Positions 9,756 through 19,841 of a stretch of DNA of 25,833 nt are shown one piece after another (position 1 is the stretch's first letter; each line of letters starts with the position of its first letter). A model generated the notes under the pieces. It was not told where the DNA came from. It searched no databases and was given only the letters and a program-made list of their open reading frames with translations. A program made the translations under genes and the position numbers. Source of the stretch: a virus (taxonomy: Duplodnaviria > Heunggongvirae > Uroviricota > Caudoviricetes); the IMG/VR virus record IMGVR_UViG_2563366846_000009; one strand, written 5' to 3'.

Positions 9756-11507
9756 ATGATTCAGGACGCTTTTGTGCGCCAGCGTGCGCGACAACTTTAC
9801 TGGCAGGGGTATCCGCCCGCAGAAATATCACGTCTGATGGGAATAAACCCGAACACGATTTATGCGTGGAAAAAACGGGACCAGTGGGATGAAACGCCAC
9901 CCGTGCAGCGTGTCACGCAGTCCATCGATGCGCGCCTCATCCAGCTTACTGAAAAACAGAATAAAACAGGCGGTGACTTCAAGGAAATAGACCTGCTGAC
10001 CCGGCAGCTTAAAAAGCTGCATGATGGCCAGCCGGATGCGACGGCCGCAGGAAAGAAAGGCCGGGCGAAAAAACTCAAAAATCATTTCACGCCGGAACAG
10101 ATTGCCGCACTGCGGGAAAAAATCATCAGCAGGCTGGAGTGGCATCAGCGGGGGTGGTTTGACTCCCTGACCCTTTGCAGGGAAGCCGGGATACGTAACA
10201 GGATGATCCTGAAATCCCGACAGATTGGGGCGACCTGGTATTTTGCACAGGAAGCACTGTTGATGGCGCTGCGTGACGATGTGGCGCAACCTTACCAGCG
10301 TAACCAGATTTTTTTGTCTGCGTCGCGTCGTCAGGCGTTCCAGTTTAAAAACATTATTCAGAAGGCCGCAGCTGAAGTCGATGTGGAGCTGAAAGGGGGC
10401 GATAAAATCATCCTCTCCAACGGCGCAGAGCTGCATTTTCTCGGCACTTCTGCGGCGACGGCACAGTCCTACACGGGCAATTTCTATTTTGATGAATTTT
10501 TCTGGGTCAGTCGCTTTGCTGAACTGCGCAAGGTGGCTGGCGCTATGGCAACCCTCAGCGGACTGCGGCGCACCTACTTCTCCACGCCATCCACCGAAAC
10601 GCATGAGGCATACGTTTACTGGAACGGCGACCGCTGGAACGAGAAAAAGGCCGCGCATAAACGCCAGCGTTTTTCTGTGGACTGGAAAACGCTGCATAAC
10701 GGGCTTATCTGCCCTGACCGGACGTGGCGGCAAATTGTCACGCTGGAAGATGTGGTTAATCACGGCTGGAAACACACCGATATCGACGAAATTCGTGATG
10801 AAAACACCGAAGACGAGTTCCTCAATCTCTATATGTGTGAGTTTGTCCGCGAAGGGGAATCGGCATTTAACCTGAATATCCTGATTGGCTGCGGTGTTGA
10901 CGGATACGACGACTGGAAAGACTGGAAACCTTTTGCTCCCCGCCCGATGGGGAATCGTCCGGTATGGATTGGATATGACGCAAACGGCAGCAGTGGCAAC
11001 GGCGACAGTGGCGCTGTATCCGTGGTGGTTCCTCCGGCTGTTCCTGGTGGCCGTTTTCGAACGGTGGAGACGCGACGCGTTCAGGGGCTGGAGTTTGAAG
11101 AACAGGCCAGAGTCATTGAAGAGTTCACGTATCGCTACAACGTGGAACACATCGGCATTGATGCGACGGGCGGGCACGGGGATGCCGTTTATCAGATAGT
11201 GAAAAGGTTTTTTCCCGCTGCCATCCCGTACACCTTCACGCTGTCATCAAAACGGTCGCTGGTACTGAAAATGCTGCAAATAATGCGCGCCGGGCGGTGG
11301 GAATACGATCGCGCCGAACGCGAGCTGGTCGCAGCCTTTAACGCTGTGCGTAAGGTGAAAACACCAGGCGGTTTTATCACTTACGAAACGGACCGCGCGA
11401 GGGGGATCAGCCACGGCGACCTTGCGTGGGCAACCATGCTTGCTGTCATTAACGAACCGATTGGCGGCGAAGGAGAAAACGAGCGTTTCACGGTTATGGA
11501 GTTCTGA
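9756..11507 (+). CDS. P: Terminase ATPase (large) subunit P
   Basis: 583-aa ORF with N-terminus MIQDAFVRQRARQLYWQGYPPAEISRLMGINPNTIYAWKKRD, size and position of P2 gpP. Confidence 0.9.
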   Translation: MIQDAFVRQRARQLYWQGYPPAEISRLMGINPNTIYAWKKRDQWDETPPVQRVTQSIDARLIQLTEKQNKTGGDFKEIDLLTRQLKKLHDGQPDATAAGKKGRAKKLKNHFTPEQIAALREKIISRLEWHQRGWFDSLTLCREAGIRNRMILKSRQIGATWYFAQEALLMALRDDVAQPYQRNQIFLSASRRQAFQFKNIIQKAAAEVDVELKGGDKIILSNGAELHFLGTSAATAQSYTGNFYFDEFFWVSRFAELRKVAGAMATLSGLRRTYFSTPSTETHEAYVYWNGDRWNEKKAAHKRQRFSVDWKTLHNGLICPDRTWRQIVTLEDVVNHGWKHTDIDEIRDENTEDEFLNLYMCEFVREGESAFNLNILIGCGVDGYDDWKDWKPFAPRPMGNRPVWIGYDANGSSGNGDSGAVSVVVPPAVPGGRFRTVETRRVQGLEFEEQARVIEEFTYRYNVEHIGIDATGGHGDAVYQIVKRFFPAAIPYTFTLSSKRSLVLKMLQIMRAGRWEYDRAERELVAAFNAVRKVKTPGGFITYETDRARGISHGDLAWATMLAVINEPIGGEGENERFTVMEF

Positions 11508-12553
11508 TGAGCAGAAAAAATAAAAAAGTGCGCATGAGTTCACGCATTGATCTCGCTGATGTGCTCAGGAAAGAATCGTCGCTCAGTGCATTCACATTTG
11601 ATGGTCCTTACCGCCTGACCGGGCATGATTTGCTGGACAATATGTACTGTGCTGATAACGGTCGGTGGTATGAAACCCCGGTGGACTGGTACGGTCTGGC
11701 AAGAGCAGCCCGGCAAACGTCCTGGCATCAGTCTGCGCTTTACTTTAAGCGTAATGTATTGCTCGGTTGCTATATTCCGCACCCGCTGCTTTCCCGGCAG
11801 GATTTCTCGGCGCTGGCGCTGGACTGGTTTGTGTTCGGTAACGCATTCCTTGAGCTTCGAAGCAATATGCTCGGCGAACCACTTAAATTACGGCACGCCC
11901 TGGCGAAATACATGCGACGCGGAAGCGATCTTGAATCATGGTGGTATGTGCAGGATGGCAAGGACGCGTTTCAGTTTCGCCCTGGCAAAGTGTGCCACCT
12001 GATGAATCCTGACATTAACCAGGAAATCTACGGCATGCCGGAATATCTCGGCGCATTACTCTCGGCCAGCCTGTCTCATTCGGCGGACATGTTCAGAAAA
12101 CTGTATTACGACAACGGCTCCCACGCCGGGTGCATCATCTACATCGGTGCAGCGCAGGTAAGCCGCGAAAGCATGGACTCCCTGAAGGAAACGCTACAGG
12201 GTGCGCGTGGTGGTGGTGCATTTAAAAACGTGCTCATTCATGCGCCCAACGGGGGCAAAGAGGGGGTGCAAATTTTGCCGTTCCAGCAGATCACCGCAAA
12301 GGATGAGTTCATGAATGTTAAGGCGGCATCCCGTGATGATGTGCTGGCTGCGCACCGCGTTCCGCCGCAACTGATGGGGGCGATGCCGGGTGAAAAAAGT
12401 GCGTTTGGTGATGTGGAGAAGGCCGCGCGGGTTTACGCAATTAACGAGCTGATGCCCGTCATGGAGGCCATGAAGCACATCAATGACTGGCTTGGCGAAG
12501 AGGTGATCCGTTTTAACTCTTATGCACTTCTTGATGAAAAAACAGCCCCGTGA
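11507..12553 (+). CDS. Q: Portal protein Q
   Basis: 348-aa ORF overlapping the P stop by one base, size and position of P2 gpQ. Confidence 0.9.
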   Translation: MSRKNKKVRMSSRIDLADVLRKESSLSAFTFDGPYRLTGHDLLDNMYCADNGRWYETPVDWYGLARAARQTSWHQSALYFKRNVLLGCYIPHPLLSRQDFSALALDWFVFGNAFLELRSNMLGEPLKLRHALAKYMRRGSDLESWWYVQDGKDAFQFRPGKVCHLMNPDINQEIYGMPEYLGALLSASLSHSADMFRKLYYDNGSHAGCIIYIGAAQVSRESMDSLKETLQGARGGGAFKNVLIHAPNGGKEGVQILPFQQITAKDEFMNVKAASRDDVLAAHRVPPQLMGAMPGEKSAFGDVEKAARVYAINELMPVMEAMKHINDWLGEEVIRFNSYALLDEKTAP

Positions 12554-12570
12554 TGGGGCTGTCCTTTTTA
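12540..12570. terminator. Bidirectional intrinsic terminator between convergent Q and the 174-aa gene
   Basis: Hairpin cagccccgtgatggggctg flanked by an A-run upstream and tccttttta downstream, so it reads as stem plus U-tract on both strands. The Q stop codon sits in the loop. Confidence 0.6.
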
Positions 12571-13092
12571 CCAGAGTTGAACCATTTTCTGGGTGCCGTC
12601 AGGCTTGAGATTATCAATTTCAGAGAGAACGTAATATTGAATGGCTTCACAAACGGTGGTGTATGGTGAATTACCTTCTTTAAGTGGCACGATATTATTA
12701 TTAACGCGAACCTGTATTTCATCGTTATACATTGCGATCGAAAGAGGAGTATGTACGAACGCGACTTCGCCAGGTGTGTCGTCAACCACTGTCTCAATGC
12801 TAAAAGTCAGTTTTCGCTCATCATTGCTGCCTCTTGCTTTGGGGGTTGCGGCAGGAATCTGGGATAAAGGCATTCTGCGAAATCCTTCGGCCGTTTCCAG
12901 TCCGCATGAAACGTAATGCTGGCGATTACCGTCGATATCTGTCCACGCTTGTGACGGCAGATCCAGCGAGATTTCATAAGCATCAACAATTCCCTGGGCA
13001 AGGCGTACAAGCGGGGTCAGGTCTTCATTGCGGCGAAAGCTCTCCTTTACCTGCTCTCGTTTTTCTCTTAACTGCTTGTAATTAATGACCAT
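12568..13092 (-). CDS. Hypothetical 174-aa protein, low-GC cargo gene next to the portal
   Basis: ORF with ATG at 13092 preceded by GGAGG at 8-nt spacing; the track extends it to a GTG at 13131. No recognisable motif. Markedly AT-richer than flanking phage genes. Confidence 0.55.
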   Translation of the reverse strand: MVINYKQLREKREQVKESFRRNEDLTPLVRLAQGIVDAYEISLDLPSQAWTDIDGNRQHYVSCGLETAEGFRRMPLSQIPAATPKARGSNDERKLTFSIETVVDDTPGEVAFVHTPLSIAMYNDEIQVRVNNNIVPLKEGNSPYTTVCEAIQYYVLSEIDNLKPDGTQKMVQLW

Positions 13093-13193
13093 AAGACAGC
13101 CTCCATTGATTTCTTTGCTCGTATTTTGCACTTATGAAGTGTGGTCGGCAAGGTGTCGCATCACTGACGCGCTTCGCTTGTCTGCTGCTTCGC

Positions 13194-13651: not shown

Positions 13652-14059
13652 TTATCTTTTATAGCCTTGCCCCTTCCTGGCCAGCGCCCTGATGGCCGGG
13701 CGTGCCAACACCATATTTTGGCAATGATGAATTGCCCGGCAAAATTCATCTCTACCCATTGGATGCTCAACTGGCAACGTTAAATACAGGTTCCATGCGT
13801 CGCCTAAAAGTTGGGCTATCTTTTGTTCTTCAGATGTCAGCAAGCAAGCGGTATCCGTAAAATAATCATACTTTTCATGTATGTTATTTAACGGTTTTGT
13901 CTGTAGTGCAGCCTGAGCTATACGGTATGCCTGAAGCATACTGGCGTCGTTGATATCCATTCCGAACGGAATTTCTGATGATTGTGACTCTGCATCTTCA
14001 AGCCTGGCAATTTCTTTACGTAAGAAGTATTTCAACTCTTGTTTCTGTTTTCTGTTCAT
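13652..14059 (-). CDS. Hypothetical 135-aa protein, translationally coupled to the ClpX-zinc-finger gene
   Basis: ATG overlaps the upstream stop (ATGA at 14056..14059). Low GC. No recognisable motif. Confidence 0.6.
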
Positions 14060-14388
14060 GCGTTTTTTTCCTTTTTGTCTGTCACTTCTTTCCTGATAAT
14101 TTCATTGCACAAATCCACGCACTCATTGCAGATGTAAACAGACGGTCCGGCAATCACCTTTGTGACTTCGTACTGGGATTTATTGCAGAAACTGCAATAA
14201 ACCGTCTTCTCGCCTGAAGTCCATGTTTTGCTGGTTTCGCCAGACATCAGTTGTTTGAGGTCTTTTTCACGACGAAGAACTATCTGGCCACATTCAGCTA
14301 TTTTTTGGATGTTGACATTTTCTTCTTTCGCCAGCGCTTCCATCCGCTCAATCAGTCGCTGCGCTTTTTCTCTGTCAATGTGTTGCAT
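14056..14388 (-). CDS. Small protein with C-terminal ClpX-type C4 zinc-binding domain
   Basis: Residues [38 protein letters not shown] are near-identical to the ClpX N-terminal zinc-binding domain, with all four Cys conserved. No AAA+ module follows; the first about 55 aa are unrelated. Confidence 0.85.
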
Positions 14389-14653
14389 TGTGTCCCCCTT
14401 GTTTATGTTCCCGGGTTAAAGTCATCAGGGCGGATGCGCCCTGATGTTGTGTTATTCGGGAAATAACGCCCGGATATTTCCGGCCATCTGACTGGTTATC
14501 TGTGCGGTTGGTACTGGCTGTGACACGGGGCGTTCTGTCCTACAATCAACCTCAGAGCATGGGCTATCCGGGATGGCCTCATACCACGCCAGCGTCGACT
14601 GATAGTTTTGTGCTGCCTCACGCAGTGCCTGGTAATTAATTTCGCTCACTGGT
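14389..14653. repeat. Copy B of a duplicated module (block P 14389..14541 plus block G 14542..14653)
   Basis: Block P is about 93 percent identical to 15601..15756 (3' end of parR, intergenic hairpin, RBS and ATG of the next gene). Block G is about 90 percent identical to 15493..15603 (5' end of the 213-aa gene). Block order is swapped relative to copy A. Confidence 0.75.
14452..14649 (-). CDS. Small chimeric ORF (65 aa from a GTG start): conserved SEINYQALREAAQNYQSTLAWYEAI motif fused to a ParR-like C-terminal tail
   Basis: GTG at 14649 is preceded by GGAGG at 6-nt spacing. The N-terminal 25 aa match the 213-aa protein exactly despite six synonymous DNA changes. The C-terminal 27 aa (ERPVSQPVPTAQITSQMAGNIRALFPE) match the ParR-like protein tail. 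The track calls a longer 98-aa version from 14748. Confidence 0.4.
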   Translation of the reverse strand: MSEINYQALREAAQNYQSTLAWYEAIPDSPCSEVDCRTERPVSQPVPTAQITSQMAGNIRALFPE

Positions 14654-14965
14654 TGCCTCCTGTTTGAATCTGCGCACGGAAAGAATTGGGCATTTTGTAA
14701 TCCCGCCCTCTTTCTCCCATCGGAGGAGCGGGAATCGATATGCTTCAAAATTAAGCCCCGCAGAGCGATCGCTTTGGAAGCATTTCTTACCTACCACCCA
14801 AACGTTTTCGAATCGACGCTCAATGCGAACTGCCGTCCTCCATCCGAATGGCGCGCCTGCATTTACGGCTGCATTTTTTGTCGGAAAAGTTGGCACGGAT
14901 GACACAATTTCATCAACACGCACGCTTAGGTGGCAATCGTCGACATAACTAATTGAAGCTCTCAT
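14636..14965 (-). CDS. Hypothetical 109-aa protein, coupled to the 213-aa gene
   Basis: ATG at 14965 overlaps the 213-aa stop (ATGA). No recognisable motif. Confidence 0.5.
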   Translation of the reverse strand: MRASISYVDDCHLSVRVDEIVSSVPTFPTKNAAVNAGAPFGWRTAVRIERRFENVWVVGKKCFQSDRSAGLNFEAYRFPLLRWEKEGGITKCPILSVRRFKQEATSERN

Positions 14966-15603
14966 GACTGAACTCCTTTGCGAAGCTGCTCCGCACAATG
15001 CAGCAGGGCGTCCGTCGCTTCTTTCACCGTAACGATGTCGCCATCGTCCAGCCCGGCAACCGTCGCGTCCTTAACGAACACCGAGCAAAGGTCATTAAAC
15101 GCCTGCGCTCGTACTTCAGCCAGAAAAGCATTGGTGGCTGGGGTTTCCGGCAATAATCCGCCAACCAGTTCTATTTCTGTTCTGAACCGGGAACTAGACA
15201 CAACGCGATAAGTCAGGTTCGGCATTCTGGCTGCCACTTGCATCTCAAACTCCTCTCCAGATTCCAGCCCGGCTTCATGGGCGTAATCAAGCGGGCTTCT
15301 GACAGGCTCTGAAGCTTCGCCGCCCCAGTAAATCAGGTTCGACTTCAGCCCTGCATTCTCCGCAGCCAGCACCGCAAGATTAGCCTCCAGCTCTGCAATA
15401 CGCTTGTTTTGGGCTTCCCGCTCATCCAGCAGCTCGGCGATAATGTCCATTTCCTGATGACGGATTTGACGCTTAAACGCCGCCACTGCTTCGCTACAAT
15501 CCTGCTCAGCATTTGGGTTATCCGTGATGGCCTCATACCACGCCAGCGTCGATTGATAGTTTTGTGCCGCCTCACGTAATGCCTGATAGTTGATTTCGCT
15601 CAT
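14962..15603 (-). CDS. Hypothetical 213-aa protein with conserved N-terminal motif and central coiled-coil-like region
   Basis: ATG preceded by AAGGAG. Heptad-like stretch REAQNKRIAELEANLAVLAAENAGLKSNL and an acidic C-terminal half. Possible resemblance to Ead/Ea22-like prophage proteins is unverified. Confidence 0.65.
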   Translation of the reverse strand: MSEINYQALREAAQNYQSTLAWYEAITDNPNAEQDCSEAVAAFKRQIRHQEMDIIAELLDEREAQNKRIAELEANLAVLAAENAGLKSNLIYWGGEASEPVRSPLDYAHEAGLESGEEFEMQVAARMPNLTYRVVSSSRFRTEIELVGGLLPETPATNAFLAEVRAQAFNDLCSVFVKDATVAGLDDGDIVTVKEATDALLHCAEQLRKGVQS

Positions 15604-15756
15604 TATGTCGTTCTCCTTGTTTATGCTCTGAGGTGGAGATCAGGACGAACTCGCCCTGACGTTGTGTTATTCAGGAAATAACGCCCGGATATTTTCAGCC
15701 ATCTGACTGGTTATCTGTGCGGTTGGTGCTGGCTGTGACACGGGGCGTTCCGTCCT
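15493..15756. repeat. Copy A of the duplicated module (block G 15493..15603, block P 15601..15756)
   Basis: Counterpart of 14389..14653; includes the imperfect hairpin caggacgaactcgccctg just after the parR stop. Confidence 0.75.
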
Positions 15757-15978
15757 GTTTTGTGTCACTGATAACGCCTCATCGTCAGCCCATGCAGCCA
15801 GTCGGTAAGCCTCTGCCGGATTCATTTTCAGAAGTGCCAGCCCGGCCATAAAAGCCACGCGTTGACCGCTTTTGTGGGCTTCTGGTGTAAGGCTGTCCAG
15901 CCAGGCGCATGCTTCGCCTTCGTTCTTGACGGCGGCGGGCTTCAGATAGAAACTTATCCTCCTGGTTGATGTCGCCAT
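15667..15978 (-). CDS. parR: ParR-like partition adaptor
   Basis: ATG at 15978 sits 4 nt after the parM stop with AAGGAG upstream. The 103-aa product aligns by eye with plasmid R1 ParR (ISFYLKP..., AGLAL..., C-terminal NIRALFPE versus ILRSLFPKE). The track shows a longer ORF from 16113. Confidence 0.7.
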   Translation of the reverse strand: MATSTRRISFYLKPAAVKNEGEACAWLDSLTPEAHKSGQRVAFMAGLALLKMNPAEAYRLAAWADDEALSVTQNRTERPVSQPAPTAQITSQMAENIRALFPE

Positions 15979-15982
15979 TGAT

Positions 15983-16942
15983 TTACTCCTTGTCCATTGC
16001 GTGCAGCCCATTAACCAGAGCAAACTGTGGCACCCCGTCCGCAATGAAAGTCGCATTAACTCCGCAGGCTTCGCGGATAGCGGGTGCCACAATCTCCGCT
16101 CCTCCACCGACAACCATCACCCGCCCGTAACCCGAAAAAACCGCCAGCGCGCGGATCACGCGTTGCTTCAGTGTTTCTTCCTTTTCACGAATAACCGCCA
16201 TCAGGCTGGCGTAATGCGCGTCATTGTGGATGTGCTGGCGCAGCCAGGCTTCATCATGGCGATGTTCGATAATGGTATTGGCGATGTGGTGACTGGTGCG
16301 CATACCGTTAGTGGCCATCACCGACAGTACGGCATCGGCCATCAGAGAAACGCCTACGTGTGGATCGCAAAACACCTGGCTGATACCTGCCAGTTGCCCC
16401 TGAACCTTTGCCACATCCAGCGTGGTTCCGCCCAAATCCACAATCAGCAGGGATTCAAACGGACTCATGTCAGCCAGTGCCTTAAAGCCAGCCGGAATGG
16501 ATTCAGGCATAACCCGCACGTTACGGATAGTGAATGCTTCGCCGTTCTGGTACTTCACCGGGCGCATAACGTTCGCTTTTTTGCGGTTGATGTTGGCCAT
16601 GTCCGGCTGTGCGTTTGTGTCGAAATACTCGCTCAGTGGCAGGGTGACAACCACATCCACCTCCTGTGGCGTGATGCCTGATTTGACCAGCGCGTGATGA
16701 ATGGCAATGACATTCACATCACTGTACTGGTATTGCGTGTCGGTTGTCTGGACAAAGCGATCGCTGACCGGATCAAAACCATAGCGCACGCCATCAAGCA
16801 TGTAGTTCGCGGGCTGCGTGCCACCGAACGGCGCAGACCATTCCGACTTGAAGCTGTTCGGGCTGATAGCGTTGCGGCGTTCGCCGTTCTCAGTCCATGC
16901 CAGCTTGATGTTGGTGGAGCCGTCGTCGATACAAATTTTCAT
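15983..16942 (-). CDS. parM: ParM/StbA actin-like partition ATPase
   Basis: 319-aa protein with extensive colinear similarity to R1 ParM: IDDGSTNIKL, ISPNSFK, YSDVNV, HHAL, MPESIPAG, SLLI(V/I)DLGGTTLD, LSGIS, GVSL, GGGAE, LVNG. Confidence 0.9.
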   Translation of the reverse strand: MKICIDDGSTNIKLAWTENGERRNAISPNSFKSEWSAPFGGTQPANYMLDGVRYGFDPVSDRFVQTTDTQYQYSDVNVIAIHHALVKSGITPQEVDVVVTLPLSEYFDTNAQPDMANINRKKANVMRPVKYQNGEAFTIRNVRVMPESIPAGFKALADMSPFESLLIVDLGGTTLDVAKVQGQLAGISQVFCDPHVGVSLMADAVLSVMATNGMRTSHHIANTIIEHRHDEAWLRQHIHNDAHYASLMAVIREKEETLKQRVIRALAVFSGYGRVMVVGGGAEIVAPAIREACGVNATFIADGVPQFALVNGLHAMDKE

Positions 16943-16971: not shown

Positions 16972-17086
16972 CGTTTACGGGATTCTGAAATCCCGCTTTT
17001 GCCTGTTTTGTGCGCGCTTCATATATCGCGGCACGTTTTTTGCTCATTTACGGGATTTGTGAATCCCGTTTTTGTCTGTTTTTTGT
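16972..17086. repeat. Two tandem about 40-bp repeats, each a 7-bp-stem hairpin plus T-tract, between the parM start and the A stop
   Basis: R1 at 16972..17012 (cgggatt ctga aatcccg, then cttttgcctgttttgtg) and R2 at 17044..17086 (cgggatt tgtg aatcccg, then tttttgtctgttttttg). R2 lies inside the last about 22 codons of the A ORF. Confidence 0.6.
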
Positions 17087-19841
17087 TTCCACTGGTCAGG
17101 CCACCCCGCAGCAGGTCTGCTTTGCGGCGGGCGCGTTCAGTGGTTTCACTGATTCTCTGTGTGTGCTCTGCGTCGCGGATGGCGCGCAGCATGTCAGAAA
17201 GCACGGTAACGGGGGTTTTCATGGTGTTCTGGCCCTGCTGAAGTGTGGATGCCAGGCGTGCGGCGGCTTCAGGGGCTGATGCCCCCAGCTGTTCCAGATA
17301 GCTGGCGACCGGGTTATGGCGGATCTCCGTGCTGCTTACGCCGTGATTGCGGCTCAGGCGCTGCCAGAGCTGCGTGATTCGGCTGTCCTGGCGGGTATCC
17401 GGTTTGCGTACAATTTCAAATCCCTGCGGTGCAATGATGCTGCCGTCAACGTACAGACTGCCGCCCCGTAACAGGTGCTGCATCTGCTGTTCACCGATAT
17501 GCAGGCCGAGAGATTCAGCAGACTCCCGCCATTCTTTAGCGAGTAATTCGTGGTTATCAGGCAAAGTCCGCTGCTGTTTGCGGCTCTGTGTCCAGCTCTG
17601 CATTTCATCACTGCTGTTTTTTGCCTGTTTGTCACGAAGCGAACGCATCAGCGTCCGGCGTTCGTGCCGTTTCAGTGAGCGCATCCATTCGTTCACTTCA
17701 ACGCCGTCAGGGAGCTGCGGCCACGGTGCTGACCGTTCTTCCGGCTGTTCTGTCCCGTTGTTGTCCGTTTCCTGTACACGAGGACAGTTATTGCCACGAG
17801 TCCAAGGGGCGGCAGGGCCGCCCTGAAGGTCAAAACCATTTTCGCGGGCGCTGTCTTCCGCTTCCGGTTTACGTCTTACCAGCTTCCAGTTATCCGGATG
17901 CGTGCACACACGGGAGGATTCCCCGATGAGTGGTGACCAGATCCCGTAAATCTGTACGCTCTGTTCGCCGTAATCGTTCAGCTCATCTGCGAGGTCGTAG
18001 GCGGTGCGAATCAGGTAGTCTTTACGTGGAACAAGTACGCCACCCTGTTTTTCAATGTAGGTGGCAAAACACCCGGCATCAGCGGCAGCAAGAACCGCAT
18101 CCATTGCGTCATCCTTCAGCCGTTGCGGGCCTTCCGGGTTGCGTGCCATCTGGCTGGCAAGGCGGCGCAGTTCACGCCACACCTGACGGGAGGGGATGCC
18201 AAAGAACTGGAACTGGCGGACCCGGTGAAGGCGCGCCCAGCCGATGGCGCGCTCCACGCTCTCGGCCATTGATTTTCCGGTTTCGTGGTCAACGCGTGGT
18301 TTGCCCGTTTTCGGGTCGATGCCATCCACGGCGCGGCTGTCCAGGTTCTTTCCGATGTAGGTGGCGATGTAGCTGGTTGGCGTGCCTTTTGAGCCGTCGA
18401 CATACTCCGCCTTAAAGCGCGGAGTTATGTCATTGCCCAGCTCGTGGCGGTCTTCGCGAATGGCAATATCACGGGTGATGTCCACGATGCTGTCGATTTC
18501 TTCAGGATGTGCAAAGACCATCATGTGCCAGTGCACCGTGCCTTCATGATGAGGCTCCGCCGTGCGGATGCCATACCAGCGCAGGCCGTCGCGGTTCAGT
18601 TTTTTGCGGACCGCCGCAAAAAACGTGTTAACCAGGTAATCGCTGGAGTCGCGCATGGTGGCCCCGTTCCATTTGGGGTTCGGATGACCGTTCTCCGTTG
18701 TTGCGTGGTATTTTGACGGGCAGGTGACAGTCAGAAACACCGCTTTGTCACCACGGGCTTCGGCCAGAAGTTCCAGCCCCTTCATGGTGGCCATCATTTC
18801 TGCCTTACGGTGAACCGGGTTACTTACTCCCGCGTAATACACTGTCTCGAGATCAATCGTGAACCCGTCTTCATTTTCCAGCATGAAACTTTTCAGGAAA
18901 TCGCGTGTTTTCTCGCGCTGTGCGCGAAACTCGCTTAACGCGTCCTGGCTCAGATAGGGTGATGTTTTTCTGGAAACCAGACAGGCGGCGCGGAGTTGTT
19001 CTTCCCGCCACTCACAACGTAACAGCCACAGTTTTCGTTTCCACCATTCCGCACAGGTCAGGCGAAGGATTGCGCCCGGCAGCAGCTCCGTGTCCGGTTC
19101 GTTCCTCTGGTCTTTGTCTGTTGTCAGTGCGTCATAATGTGGAGGCATGGCGTGCAGGTGTAACGCCATGCGGGCCAGCATCTGATACGCCTTCAGGGTT
19201 ACATCCATGGTCAGCTCGCCATCGGTCGCGCCAAAGCCATCGCAGAGTTTTTCGAAGGTGCTGCTGAACATCGCCGCCGTCATGGTGGCCAGCGTCTGTA
19301 TCTGGTGCTTGTTGAGCTGCGGCAGGTAAAGCAAATCGTCCAGGCGTTCGCGTCCGGCAAGGGAGCGATAACCCGGTGTCAGCCAGCGGCTGTCGGTGCG
19401 GTCCAGACGTTCGAATATTTTGCGCAGGGTTCCGCGTGCATAGCGTTCCGCCTGCCAGCTCTTTTTGCCTTTCCGGCGATCGGCTTCCTGTTTTTTGCGC
19501 AGGAAGGAGAGGTGGCGAATAAGCGGATCGCGCAGATAGGACGGCAGCAGGCGCAGCGAGGCCATGGCTTCATCCACCGCACCGCGTGCCTGTTTTCTGG
19601 CGTCTCCTGCCAGTGTGATGGTTTTGTCCTGTTTTTCCTGTGCGTCCAGGCTTTTATTAATCAGGTTGCCCAGCGGCGTGGCGGAGAACGCCGCATCAGC
19701 CATTTCCTGGCGGCGCTCGTTCTCTGCCCGGTAGGCATCCAGCCAGGAGGAAAGCGCGGATTCAGGAGCGGGGATCCCCGTTCCTTCACGCCCGACTGCG
19801 TGGCGCGGTTGTTGCCAGTCCCTGATGTACTCTGCCGTCAT
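17019..19841 (-). CDS. A: Replication initiator A (rolling-circle, HUH-type)
   Basis: 940-aa ORF containing EPHHEGTVHWHMMVF and YIATYIGKN, matching conserved P2 gpA motifs. True start may be internal; the ORF is longer than P2 gpA. Confidence 0.85.
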   Translation of the reverse strand: MTAEYIRDWQQPRHAVGREGTGIPAPESALSSWLDAYRAENERRQEMADAAFSATPLGNLINKSLDAQEKQDKTITLAGDARKQARGAVDEAMASLRLLPSYLRDPLIRHLSFLRKKQEADRRKGKKSWQAERYARGTLRKIFERLDRTDSRWLTPGYRSLAGRERLDDLLYLPQLNKHQIQTLATMTAAMFSSTFEKLCDGFGATDGELTMDVTLKAYQMLARMALHLHAMPPHYDALTTDKDQRNEPDTELLPGAILRLTCAEWWKRKLWLLRCEWREEQLRAACLVSRKTSPYLSQDALSEFRAQREKTRDFLKSFMLENEDGFTIDLETVYYAGVSNPVHRKAEMMATMKGLELLAEARGDKAVFLTVTCPSKYHATTENGHPNPKWNGATMRDSSDYLVNTFFAAVRKKLNRDGLRWYGIRTAEPHHEGTVHWHMMVFAHPEEIDSIVDITRDIAIREDRHELGNDITPRFKAEYVDGSKGTPTSYIATYIGKNLDSRAVDGIDPKTGKPRVDHETGKSMAESVERAIGWARLHRVRQFQFFGIPSRQVWRELRRLASQMARNPEGPQRLKDDAMDAVLAAADAGCFATYIEKQGGVLVPRKDYLIRTAYDLADELNDYGEQSVQIYGIWSPLIGESSRVCTHPDNWKLVRRKPEAEDSARENGFDLQGGPAAPWTRGNNCPRVQETDNNGTEQPEERSAPWPQLPDGVEVNEWMRSLKRHERRTLMRSLRDKQAKNSSDEMQSWTQSRKQQRTLPDNHELLAKEWRESAESLGLHIGEQQMQHLLRGGSLYVDGSIIAPQGFEIVRKPDTRQDSRITQLWQRLSRNHGVSSTEIRHNPVASYLEQLGASAPEAAARLASTLQQGQNTMKTPVTVLSDMLRAIRDAEHTQRISETTERARRKADLLRGGLTSGNKKQTKTGFTNPVNEQKTCRDI

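Follow-up and report, generated by a model that had tools for sequence, protein, structure and literature searches.

An Ead/Ea22-like gene and its coupled neighbour in the gpA-gpQ hotspot of a P88-like prophage: a putative acquisition from lambdoid phages

Introduction

The Ea22 proteins of phage lambda and of Stx phages are pro-lysogenic and tetrameric, and have a decoupled C-terminal domain (CTD) (PMC7093339, PMC10834534). Lambda Ea22 is built of three parts, namely: a short N-terminal segment, a central coiled coil and a separate C-terminal domain (PMC10834534). Among the Ea22 homologues of Stx phages, the C-terminal domains are diverse (PMC10834534, PMC7093339).

In P2-like phages, the cos-proximal region between gpA and gpQ (old/tin) is a variable hotspot and a site of defence systems; arrangements within it that contain parMR were taken as partition systems and not as defence (Rousset et al. 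2022). In the ParR protein of R1, the C-terminal 17 residues form the peptide that binds ParM (PDB 4A62; PMC3794156).

Here, we describe two coupled genes, encoding proteins of 213 and 109 aa, that lie downstream of parMR in such a hotspot. They were examined within a 25,833-nt stretch of DNA (IMG/VR record IMGVR_UViG_2563366846_000009), which is referred to in its entirety as the window. The hotspot and both of its basic arrangements are already published, and the family of the 109-aa protein (orf109) is catalogued. What is new is the precise reconstruction of a proposed transfer from a lambdoid to a P2-family prophage, and the recognition of a conserved chimera between an Ea22 N-terminus and a ParR C-terminus.

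Results

Position and organization of the gene pair

Judged from its sequence, the host element is a P88-like prophage (Xuanwuvirus; Peduoviridae, P2 family). It encodes a gpA-like replication endonuclease (940-aa ORF, 17019-19841), an R1-type ParM (E = 3.5e-92 to PDB 1MWK) and, on the strand opposite to gpA, a portal protein (11507-12553). The gene pair follows parM-parR and is located between the gpA endonuclease gene and the gpQ portal gene. Its upstream border is parR (Plasmid_stab_B; 15667-15978, minus strand; PF10784, E = 7e-22), which encodes 103 aa from an ATG according to the gene calls. Its downstream border is a gene for a 110-aa protein with a ClpX-type C4 zinc finger (14056-14388, minus strand; PF06689, E = 6.8e-18). 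In phage P88, parR is followed directly by the ClpX zinc-finger gene, and in prophage FHI_NMBU_03 by a 144-aa Ea22-like gene.

The 213-aa gene (14962-15603) and orf109 (14636-14965) are both on the minus strand and are joined by an ATGA overlap, in which the TGA stop of the former (14962-14964) shares nucleotides with the ATG start of the latter (14963-14965). A strong Shine-Dalgarno sequence, AAGGAG, is present 7-8 nt 5′ of each start. The first-pass annotation had given the span of the pair, the lengths of both ORFs, their site between parR and the ClpX zinc-finger gene and their stop/start coupling correctly; it had given no strand. On a public contig of identical sequence, the genes called independently include the same 213-aa and 109-aa genes, together with a 65-aa gene described below. 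The exact 65-aa and 109-aa proteins are also deposited as ELC24004.1 and ELC24005.1 (WCU_04498 and WCU_04499) of Escherichia coli KTE15, and a 34.4-kb Logan contig (L004) has a gene arrangement identical to that of the window.

Several features of the surrounding genes are noted here. The mechanical parR ORF (15667-16113, minus strand) starts at a TTG, encodes 148 aa and overlaps parM; the ATG used by the gene callers and RefSeq (103 aa) is 4 nt past the parM stop. A 135-aa ORF (13652-14059, minus strand) overlaps the ClpX zinc-finger gene by 4 nt, and its C-terminal 65 residues match PHROG 13916, which carries the label ‘DNA ligase’ though its profile has 67 positions. In one sister locus, L012 (5855-6592), the zinc-finger and 135-aa ORFs are called as one 245-aa product. 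A 187-aa ORF (12568-13131, minus strand; 174 aa on public contigs) adjoins the portal gene and matches PHROG 5091, of unknown function; it is found in only some of the sister prophages and is a further variable gene of the hotspot. Finally, both the window and L012 have the gpA-like endonuclease as a single ORF of 940 aa. The calls in L010 and L014 (506-3585) give 871 + 155 aa, and those in L011 and L013 (551-3121) give 856 aa. These split or short calls suggest frameshift or stop variants, or assembly errors.

The 213-aa protein belongs, by its profile match, to the Ead/Ea22-like family

According to the first-pass annotation, neither protein of the pair matched anything recognizable. This holds for orf109, which has no characterized relative, but not for the 213-aa protein. 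The latter scores above the gathering threshold of PF13935 (Ead/Ea22-like; 45.9 bits vs. 27, E = 1.1e-11, residues 2-89), and the NCBI protein that is identical to it (P0022) is already named “ead/Ea22-like family protein”. It also matches PHROGs 368, 492 and 27745, all of unknown function. Far from being an orphan, the 213-aa protein is a new allele in the Ead/Ea22-like family, which is already known and has been characterized in part.

The conserved N-terminal motif that had been reported for the protein is present. An AlphaFold2 monomer model (pLDDT 73, from a 74-sequence alignment) places an N-terminal helix at residues 6-26 and a single 58-residue helix at residues 32-89, which bears out the coiled-coil-like middle noted earlier. 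A low-confidence linker (residues 90-103) is followed by a small α/β unit (104-148) and by helices at 155-182 and 193-211. As modelled, the protein has the three-part architecture of Ea22, with a short N-terminal segment, a long central helix and a separate C-terminal domain. The C-terminal half is acidic, as had been claimed, but this is not a property of that half alone, since the whole protein is acidic (pI 4.5); orf109 is basic (pI 9.7).

The protein is modular in that residues 1-73, 75-168 and 169-213 are each shared with a different set of proteins. Residues 1-73 are 92% identical to an Ea22-like protein of another Xuanwuvirus prophage, while residues 75-168 and 169-213 reappear behind wholly different N-termini. 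The C-terminal domain therefore appears to be exchangeable. The C-terminal part has no sequence or fold relative in the PDB, the lambda Ea22 CTD included: phmmer gave no Ea22 match, and Foldseek gave nothing at E ≤ 0.001. The missing match to lambda does not exclude family membership, because the CTDs of Stx-phage Ea22 proteins are also unlike that of lambda. One phmmer match of the 213-aa protein in the PDB (9y6s, DUF4200; E = 3e-4) was rejected as a coiled-coil artefact. NCBIfam has no match for either the 213-aa or the 109-aa protein and, consistent with the first-pass annotation, PDB and profile searches gave no confident homology of either one to a well-characterized structural or replication protein.

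orf109 is a conserved member of a narrow phage family

orf109 matches PHROG 16670 end to end (109/109 positions, E = 6.2e-75). Clustering at 90% identity divides the family into 21 clusters, and at 50% identity it has 53 representatives; its members are all ~100 aa long and come from Enterobacteriaceae-type phages. The 90%-identity cluster that contains orf109 occurs on hundreds of contigs, and homologues are patchy, being found in 5 of 5426 complete E. coli genomes. In comparisons with Klebsiella and Enterobacter homologues, pS is ~0.8, at which synonymous sites are saturated, and pN is ~0.2; orf109 is under purifying selection across genera. The protein is thus small, basic and conserved, and its family, a narrow one among enterobacterial phages, is catalogued without a function. 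The orf109 clusters and these pS and pN values, together with 1738 homologues of the 213-aa protein at E ≤ 1e-5, indicate that both ORFs are genuine genes and not chance ORFs.

Searches with orf109 found nothing in Pfam, NCBIfam, PADLOC or the PDB sequences. The protein is predicted, in a confident model, to adopt an α/β fold, and this modelled fold has no relative in the PDB. A profile built from 47 family members gave a sub-threshold match to NDUFS4 of mitochondrial complex I (E ~0.1, about 30 residues). Given that none of the 47 members matches any Pfam family, we reject this kinship, the match probably being due to chance. The NDUFS4-like stretch coincides with a conserved motif of the family, F-x-T-K-x-x-A-x-x-x-x-x-x-x-G-W, at profile positions 18-48 (alignment A2).

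Homologues of orf109 are located in lambdoid early regions. At five of six homologous loci (E. coli L002, L005 and L008, the Enterobacteriaceae prophage L006 and Klebsiella phage Kp4865-1), the gene 5′ of orf109 overlaps it by ATGA and its product ends in ...QLRKGVQS* or ...QLREGDGK*. The C-terminal domains encoded by these upstream genes are unrelated between loci, save for an ETPAT motif and the last ~10 residues; the coding sequence of those last residues also holds the Shine-Dalgarno sequence of orf109. In a Salmonella P22-like prophage (L007), the orf109 homologue directly follows gene N, in a region that also holds cIII, kil, arf, erf and abc; on the lambda map, this slot is occupied by ral. 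Given the unrelated upstream C-terminal domains and the L007 homologue that follows N directly, the tie of orf109 to its upstream gene appears to be organizational, i.e. a shared boundary sequence, and not an obligate protein-protein partnership. The recurrent pairing with a ‘...QLRKG’ protein could still be a true functional partnership.

Nested repeats and a chimeric ORF

The first-pass annotation had described a duplicated module around the pair. Such a module exists, in the form of two nested repeats. The first consists of D1 (15639-15756), an upstream copy comprising the 3′-terminal 30 codons of the intact parR and a downstream hairpin, and D1′ (14424-14541), a downstream copy comprising a P88-type parR 3′ end and hairpin; the two are 92% identical over 118 nt. 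The second consists of D2 (15494-15602), the upstream copy of the sequence coding for the Ea22 N-terminal motif within the 213-aa gene, and D2′ (14540-14648), the downstream copy of this motif, with which the 65-aa ORF begins; identity is 85% over 109 nt and 90% over 89 nt. In the coding direction, the nested order is parR[D1] - [D2]Ea22-213 - orf109 - [D2′][D1′] - ClpX zinc-finger gene. GC-rich hairpins are found just 3′ of both parR 3′ copies, at 14423-14446 (perfect 10-bp stem) and at ~15638-15661 (one mismatch). Neither is an obvious terminator of the parMR operon, as no T-run follows either hairpin on the coding (minus) strand.

The 65-aa ORF (14452-14649, minus strand), which was absent from the first-pass annotation, has a GTG start preceded by the Shine-Dalgarno sequence AGGAGG, and its start overlaps the 3′ end of orf109 by 14 nt. 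Its first ~36 residues are an Ea22 N-terminal motif, which continues in the same frame into the final 29 residues of a P88-type ParR. The ORF scores 29.4 bits against PF13935, and residues 28-65 match PHROG 2515 (partition protein). It is called as a gene on public contigs, the exact sequence being present on 2 contigs and the sister variant on 27. As read from the sequence, the Ea22::parR joint lies at 14541/14542, at Ea22 codon 36, with a 2-nt CT microhomology. The homology to P88 (97.2%) stops exactly at 14541, and in each of 170 E. coli genomes the match to parR ends at 14541-14542. The junction was not found in the 5426 complete E. coli genomes, the GTDB representatives or IMG/VR. The idea that it is unique to this lineage was nevertheless overturned by draft assemblies with a P0023-type sister prophage, which carry the same chimera. 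By virtue of its retained ParR tail, the 65-aa chimera might bind ParM.

Origin of the orf109-bearing arrangement

The origin of the arrangement was approached through its sister loci, namely the prophages L010-L014 of the P0023 type, which were compared with the window by blastn. For this type, at least 24 contigs were examined, and the protein is listed in 64 index blocks. The sister loci are 98.8-99.6% identical to the window over 16200-15099 and 99.2-99.3% identical over 14661-13500. They already hold both repeat pairs and the 65-aa chimeric ORF, but lack orf109. The sole difference is that the window has 437 bp (~14662-15098) in place of 75 bp in the sisters. These 437 bp encode the C-terminal 45 residues of the 213-aa protein and nearly all of orf109; the Ea22-like gene of the sisters has a different 30-residue end and encodes 198 aa in total. 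The orf109-bearing variant is rare, with 3 contigs vs. at least 24 for the sister type.

The first-pass annotation had proposed that the pair moves as a cassette bracketed by the duplicated module. The sister loci speak against this proposal: both repeat pairs are present without orf109, and one end of the segment that differs falls within the 213-aa gene, the other immediately upstream of D2′. Since L010-L014 carry both repeat pairs and differ by the 437 bp alone, the repeats do not bound the mobile unit, and D1/D2 were rejected as terminal repeats of a mobile cassette.

Instead, the 437-bp segment itself is the acquired unit, and its matches point to a lambdoid origin. Positions 14577-14988 are 96.6% identical to an array in the nin region of a lambdoid prophage, Ea22(216) - hyp(109) - Ea22(114), of E. 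coli 04-00955, and positions 14962-15144 are 91.8% identical to ST104-type phages. Among complete E. coli genomes, no exact donor was found that has both the C-terminal module of the 213-aa protein and orf109. Both ends of the segment fall in sequence that is conserved among genes of this kind. The left end lies within the ETPATNAFLAEVRA coding motif (ETPATxAFLxEVRA). The right end lies where the following gene has its Shine-Dalgarno sequence and Ea22 N-terminal motif, with the crossover in or just upstream of D2′; from this position, the Ea22 N-terminal motif does serve as a recombination site.

In the scenario that we propose, a double homologous exchange with a lambdoid prophage would have put the 437 bp into a pre-existing array of parR - Ea22 (198 aa) - Ea22N::ParRC (65 aa) - ClpX zinc-finger gene. 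The outer duplication of the parR 3′ end is older and would have arisen by an illegitimate joint of an Ea22-like gene with the parR of a second P88-type genome. That the two D1 copies are only 92% identical argues for such a joint between diverged genomes and not for a fresh duplication.

Discussion

We infer that the pair probably represents lambdoid-type early accessory genes that reside in the gpA-gpQ hotspot of a P88-like prophage. A crude sigma-70 consensus scan between parR and the pair revealed no promoter-like site, its hits being no more numerous than in shuffled sequence (4 found vs. 4.2 expected), and the genes are tightly packed, so that read-through from gpA-parMR is to be expected. 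Transcription of the gpA-parM-parR early operon would then probably extend through the three genes, whose translation would be coupled, and this would mirror the delayed-early position of all their homologues in lambdoid phages. By analogy with the Ea22 of lambda and Stx phages, the 213-aa protein would be an oligomeric coiled-coil scaffold, whose C-terminal domain would bind a host or phage partner and thereby modulate an early developmental decision. orf109 would be an independent accessory early protein.

The site itself suggests a different role, namely that the pair, alone or together with the 65-aa ORF, is expressed from the prophage as an anti-phage defence or superinfection exclusion system like old/tin. 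The genes occupy exactly the hotspot of Rousset et al. (2022), gene content at this position differs between sister prophages, and many hotspot systems consist of proteins without a known domain. Yet PADLOC has no match for the 213-, 109- or 65-aa protein, and all homologues of both genes are found in lambdoid delayed-early operons (in the nin region or just after N), which are not typical moron positions. Moreover, the crude scan found no promoter-like site upstream and Rousset et al. treat parMR arrangements as partition, so we hold a defence role to be distinctly unlikely. The early location of the homologues would also suit an early counter-defence or host-takeover function of orf109, possibly together with the Ea22-like protein, after infection or induction. 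In favour of this are the Salmonella P22-like homologue immediately after N, and the small size, basic character, patchy distribution (5/5426 complete E. coli genomes), early-operon location and PDB-unrelated fold of orf109. However, neither its sequence nor its fold resembles a known anti-restriction or anti-defence protein. Position is the sole argument, and we regard this reading as unlikely.

An acidic protein (pI 4.5) encoded upstream of a basic one (pI 9.7) with a 4-nt overlap, next to a partition system, could also bring to mind a toxin-antitoxin-like addiction pair that complements parMR, the more so as the pairing with a ‘...QLRKG’ protein recurs. Such a pair is highly improbable, given that no toxin or antitoxin domain was found in Pfam, NCBIfam or PADLOC, that the orf109 homologue of L007 has no such partner, that the sister prophages have the Ea22-like gene without orf109, and that the C-terminal domains of the upstream partners differ except in the last ~10 residues. 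At the other extreme, the genes may be neutral passengers, i.e. recombination debris brought in through short motifs common to lambdoid and P2-like prophages. The region is indeed a patchwork of recombination scars that includes a chimeric ORF, and the orf109 variant is rare (3 vs. at least 24 contigs). Mere debris is nonetheless very unlikely, as all three ORFs are intact and have strong Shine-Dalgarno sequences, and orf109 is under purifying selection across genera, with its 90%-identity cluster on hundreds of contigs.

Beyond the preferred reading of the pair as early accessory genes, a bolder proposal can be framed, to which we give little credence: the orf109 family would be a structurally new early protein that perhaps acts with Ea22-type scaffolds in counter-defence or host takeover and, separately, the 65-aa chimera, which retains the ParM-binding tail of an R1-type ParR, would attach to ParM filaments or compete there, with an effect on how the phage is partitioned while it replicates as a plasmid.

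The locus provides a near base-pair record of apparent lambdoid gene flow into an accessory/defence hotspot of the P2 family, although it carries little weight alone. The proposed crossovers are at short conserved coding motifs, namely: the Ea22 N-terminal motif, ETPAT...EVRA and the ...QLRKG/Shine-Dalgarno boundary. Arrays of Ea22-like genes may accordingly be viewed as landing pads for single-gene cassettes. Both orf109, as a conserved and well-modelled representative of PHROG 16670, and the chimera with the ParR tail are cheap targets for experiments.

With respect to known systems, orf109 is simply a member of PHROG 16670, a family without an assigned function, Pfam model or structure. The 213-aa protein shares its N-terminal motif and three-part layout with the Ea22 of lambda and Stx phages and with P22 Ead (PF13935), relatives that are expressed early. 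It differs from lambda Ea22 in that the solved CTD of the latter is unrelated to its own, and in that its gene follows parMR in a P2-family prophage and is not located in a lambdoid exo-xis region. The lambdoid arrays of E. coli 04-00955 and FHI_NMBU_10/11 agree with the window in gene order and in the 4-nt and 14-nt overlaps, and their orf109 is 97.9% identical; in this case, the upstream Ea22-like body has 33% protein identity and the host is a lambdoid prophage. The three window proteins (213, 109 and 65 aa) have no match among the defence proteins of PADLOC. Their position is identical to that of the hotspot arrangements of Rousset et al. (2022), and the window combines both arrangement types and adds orf109.
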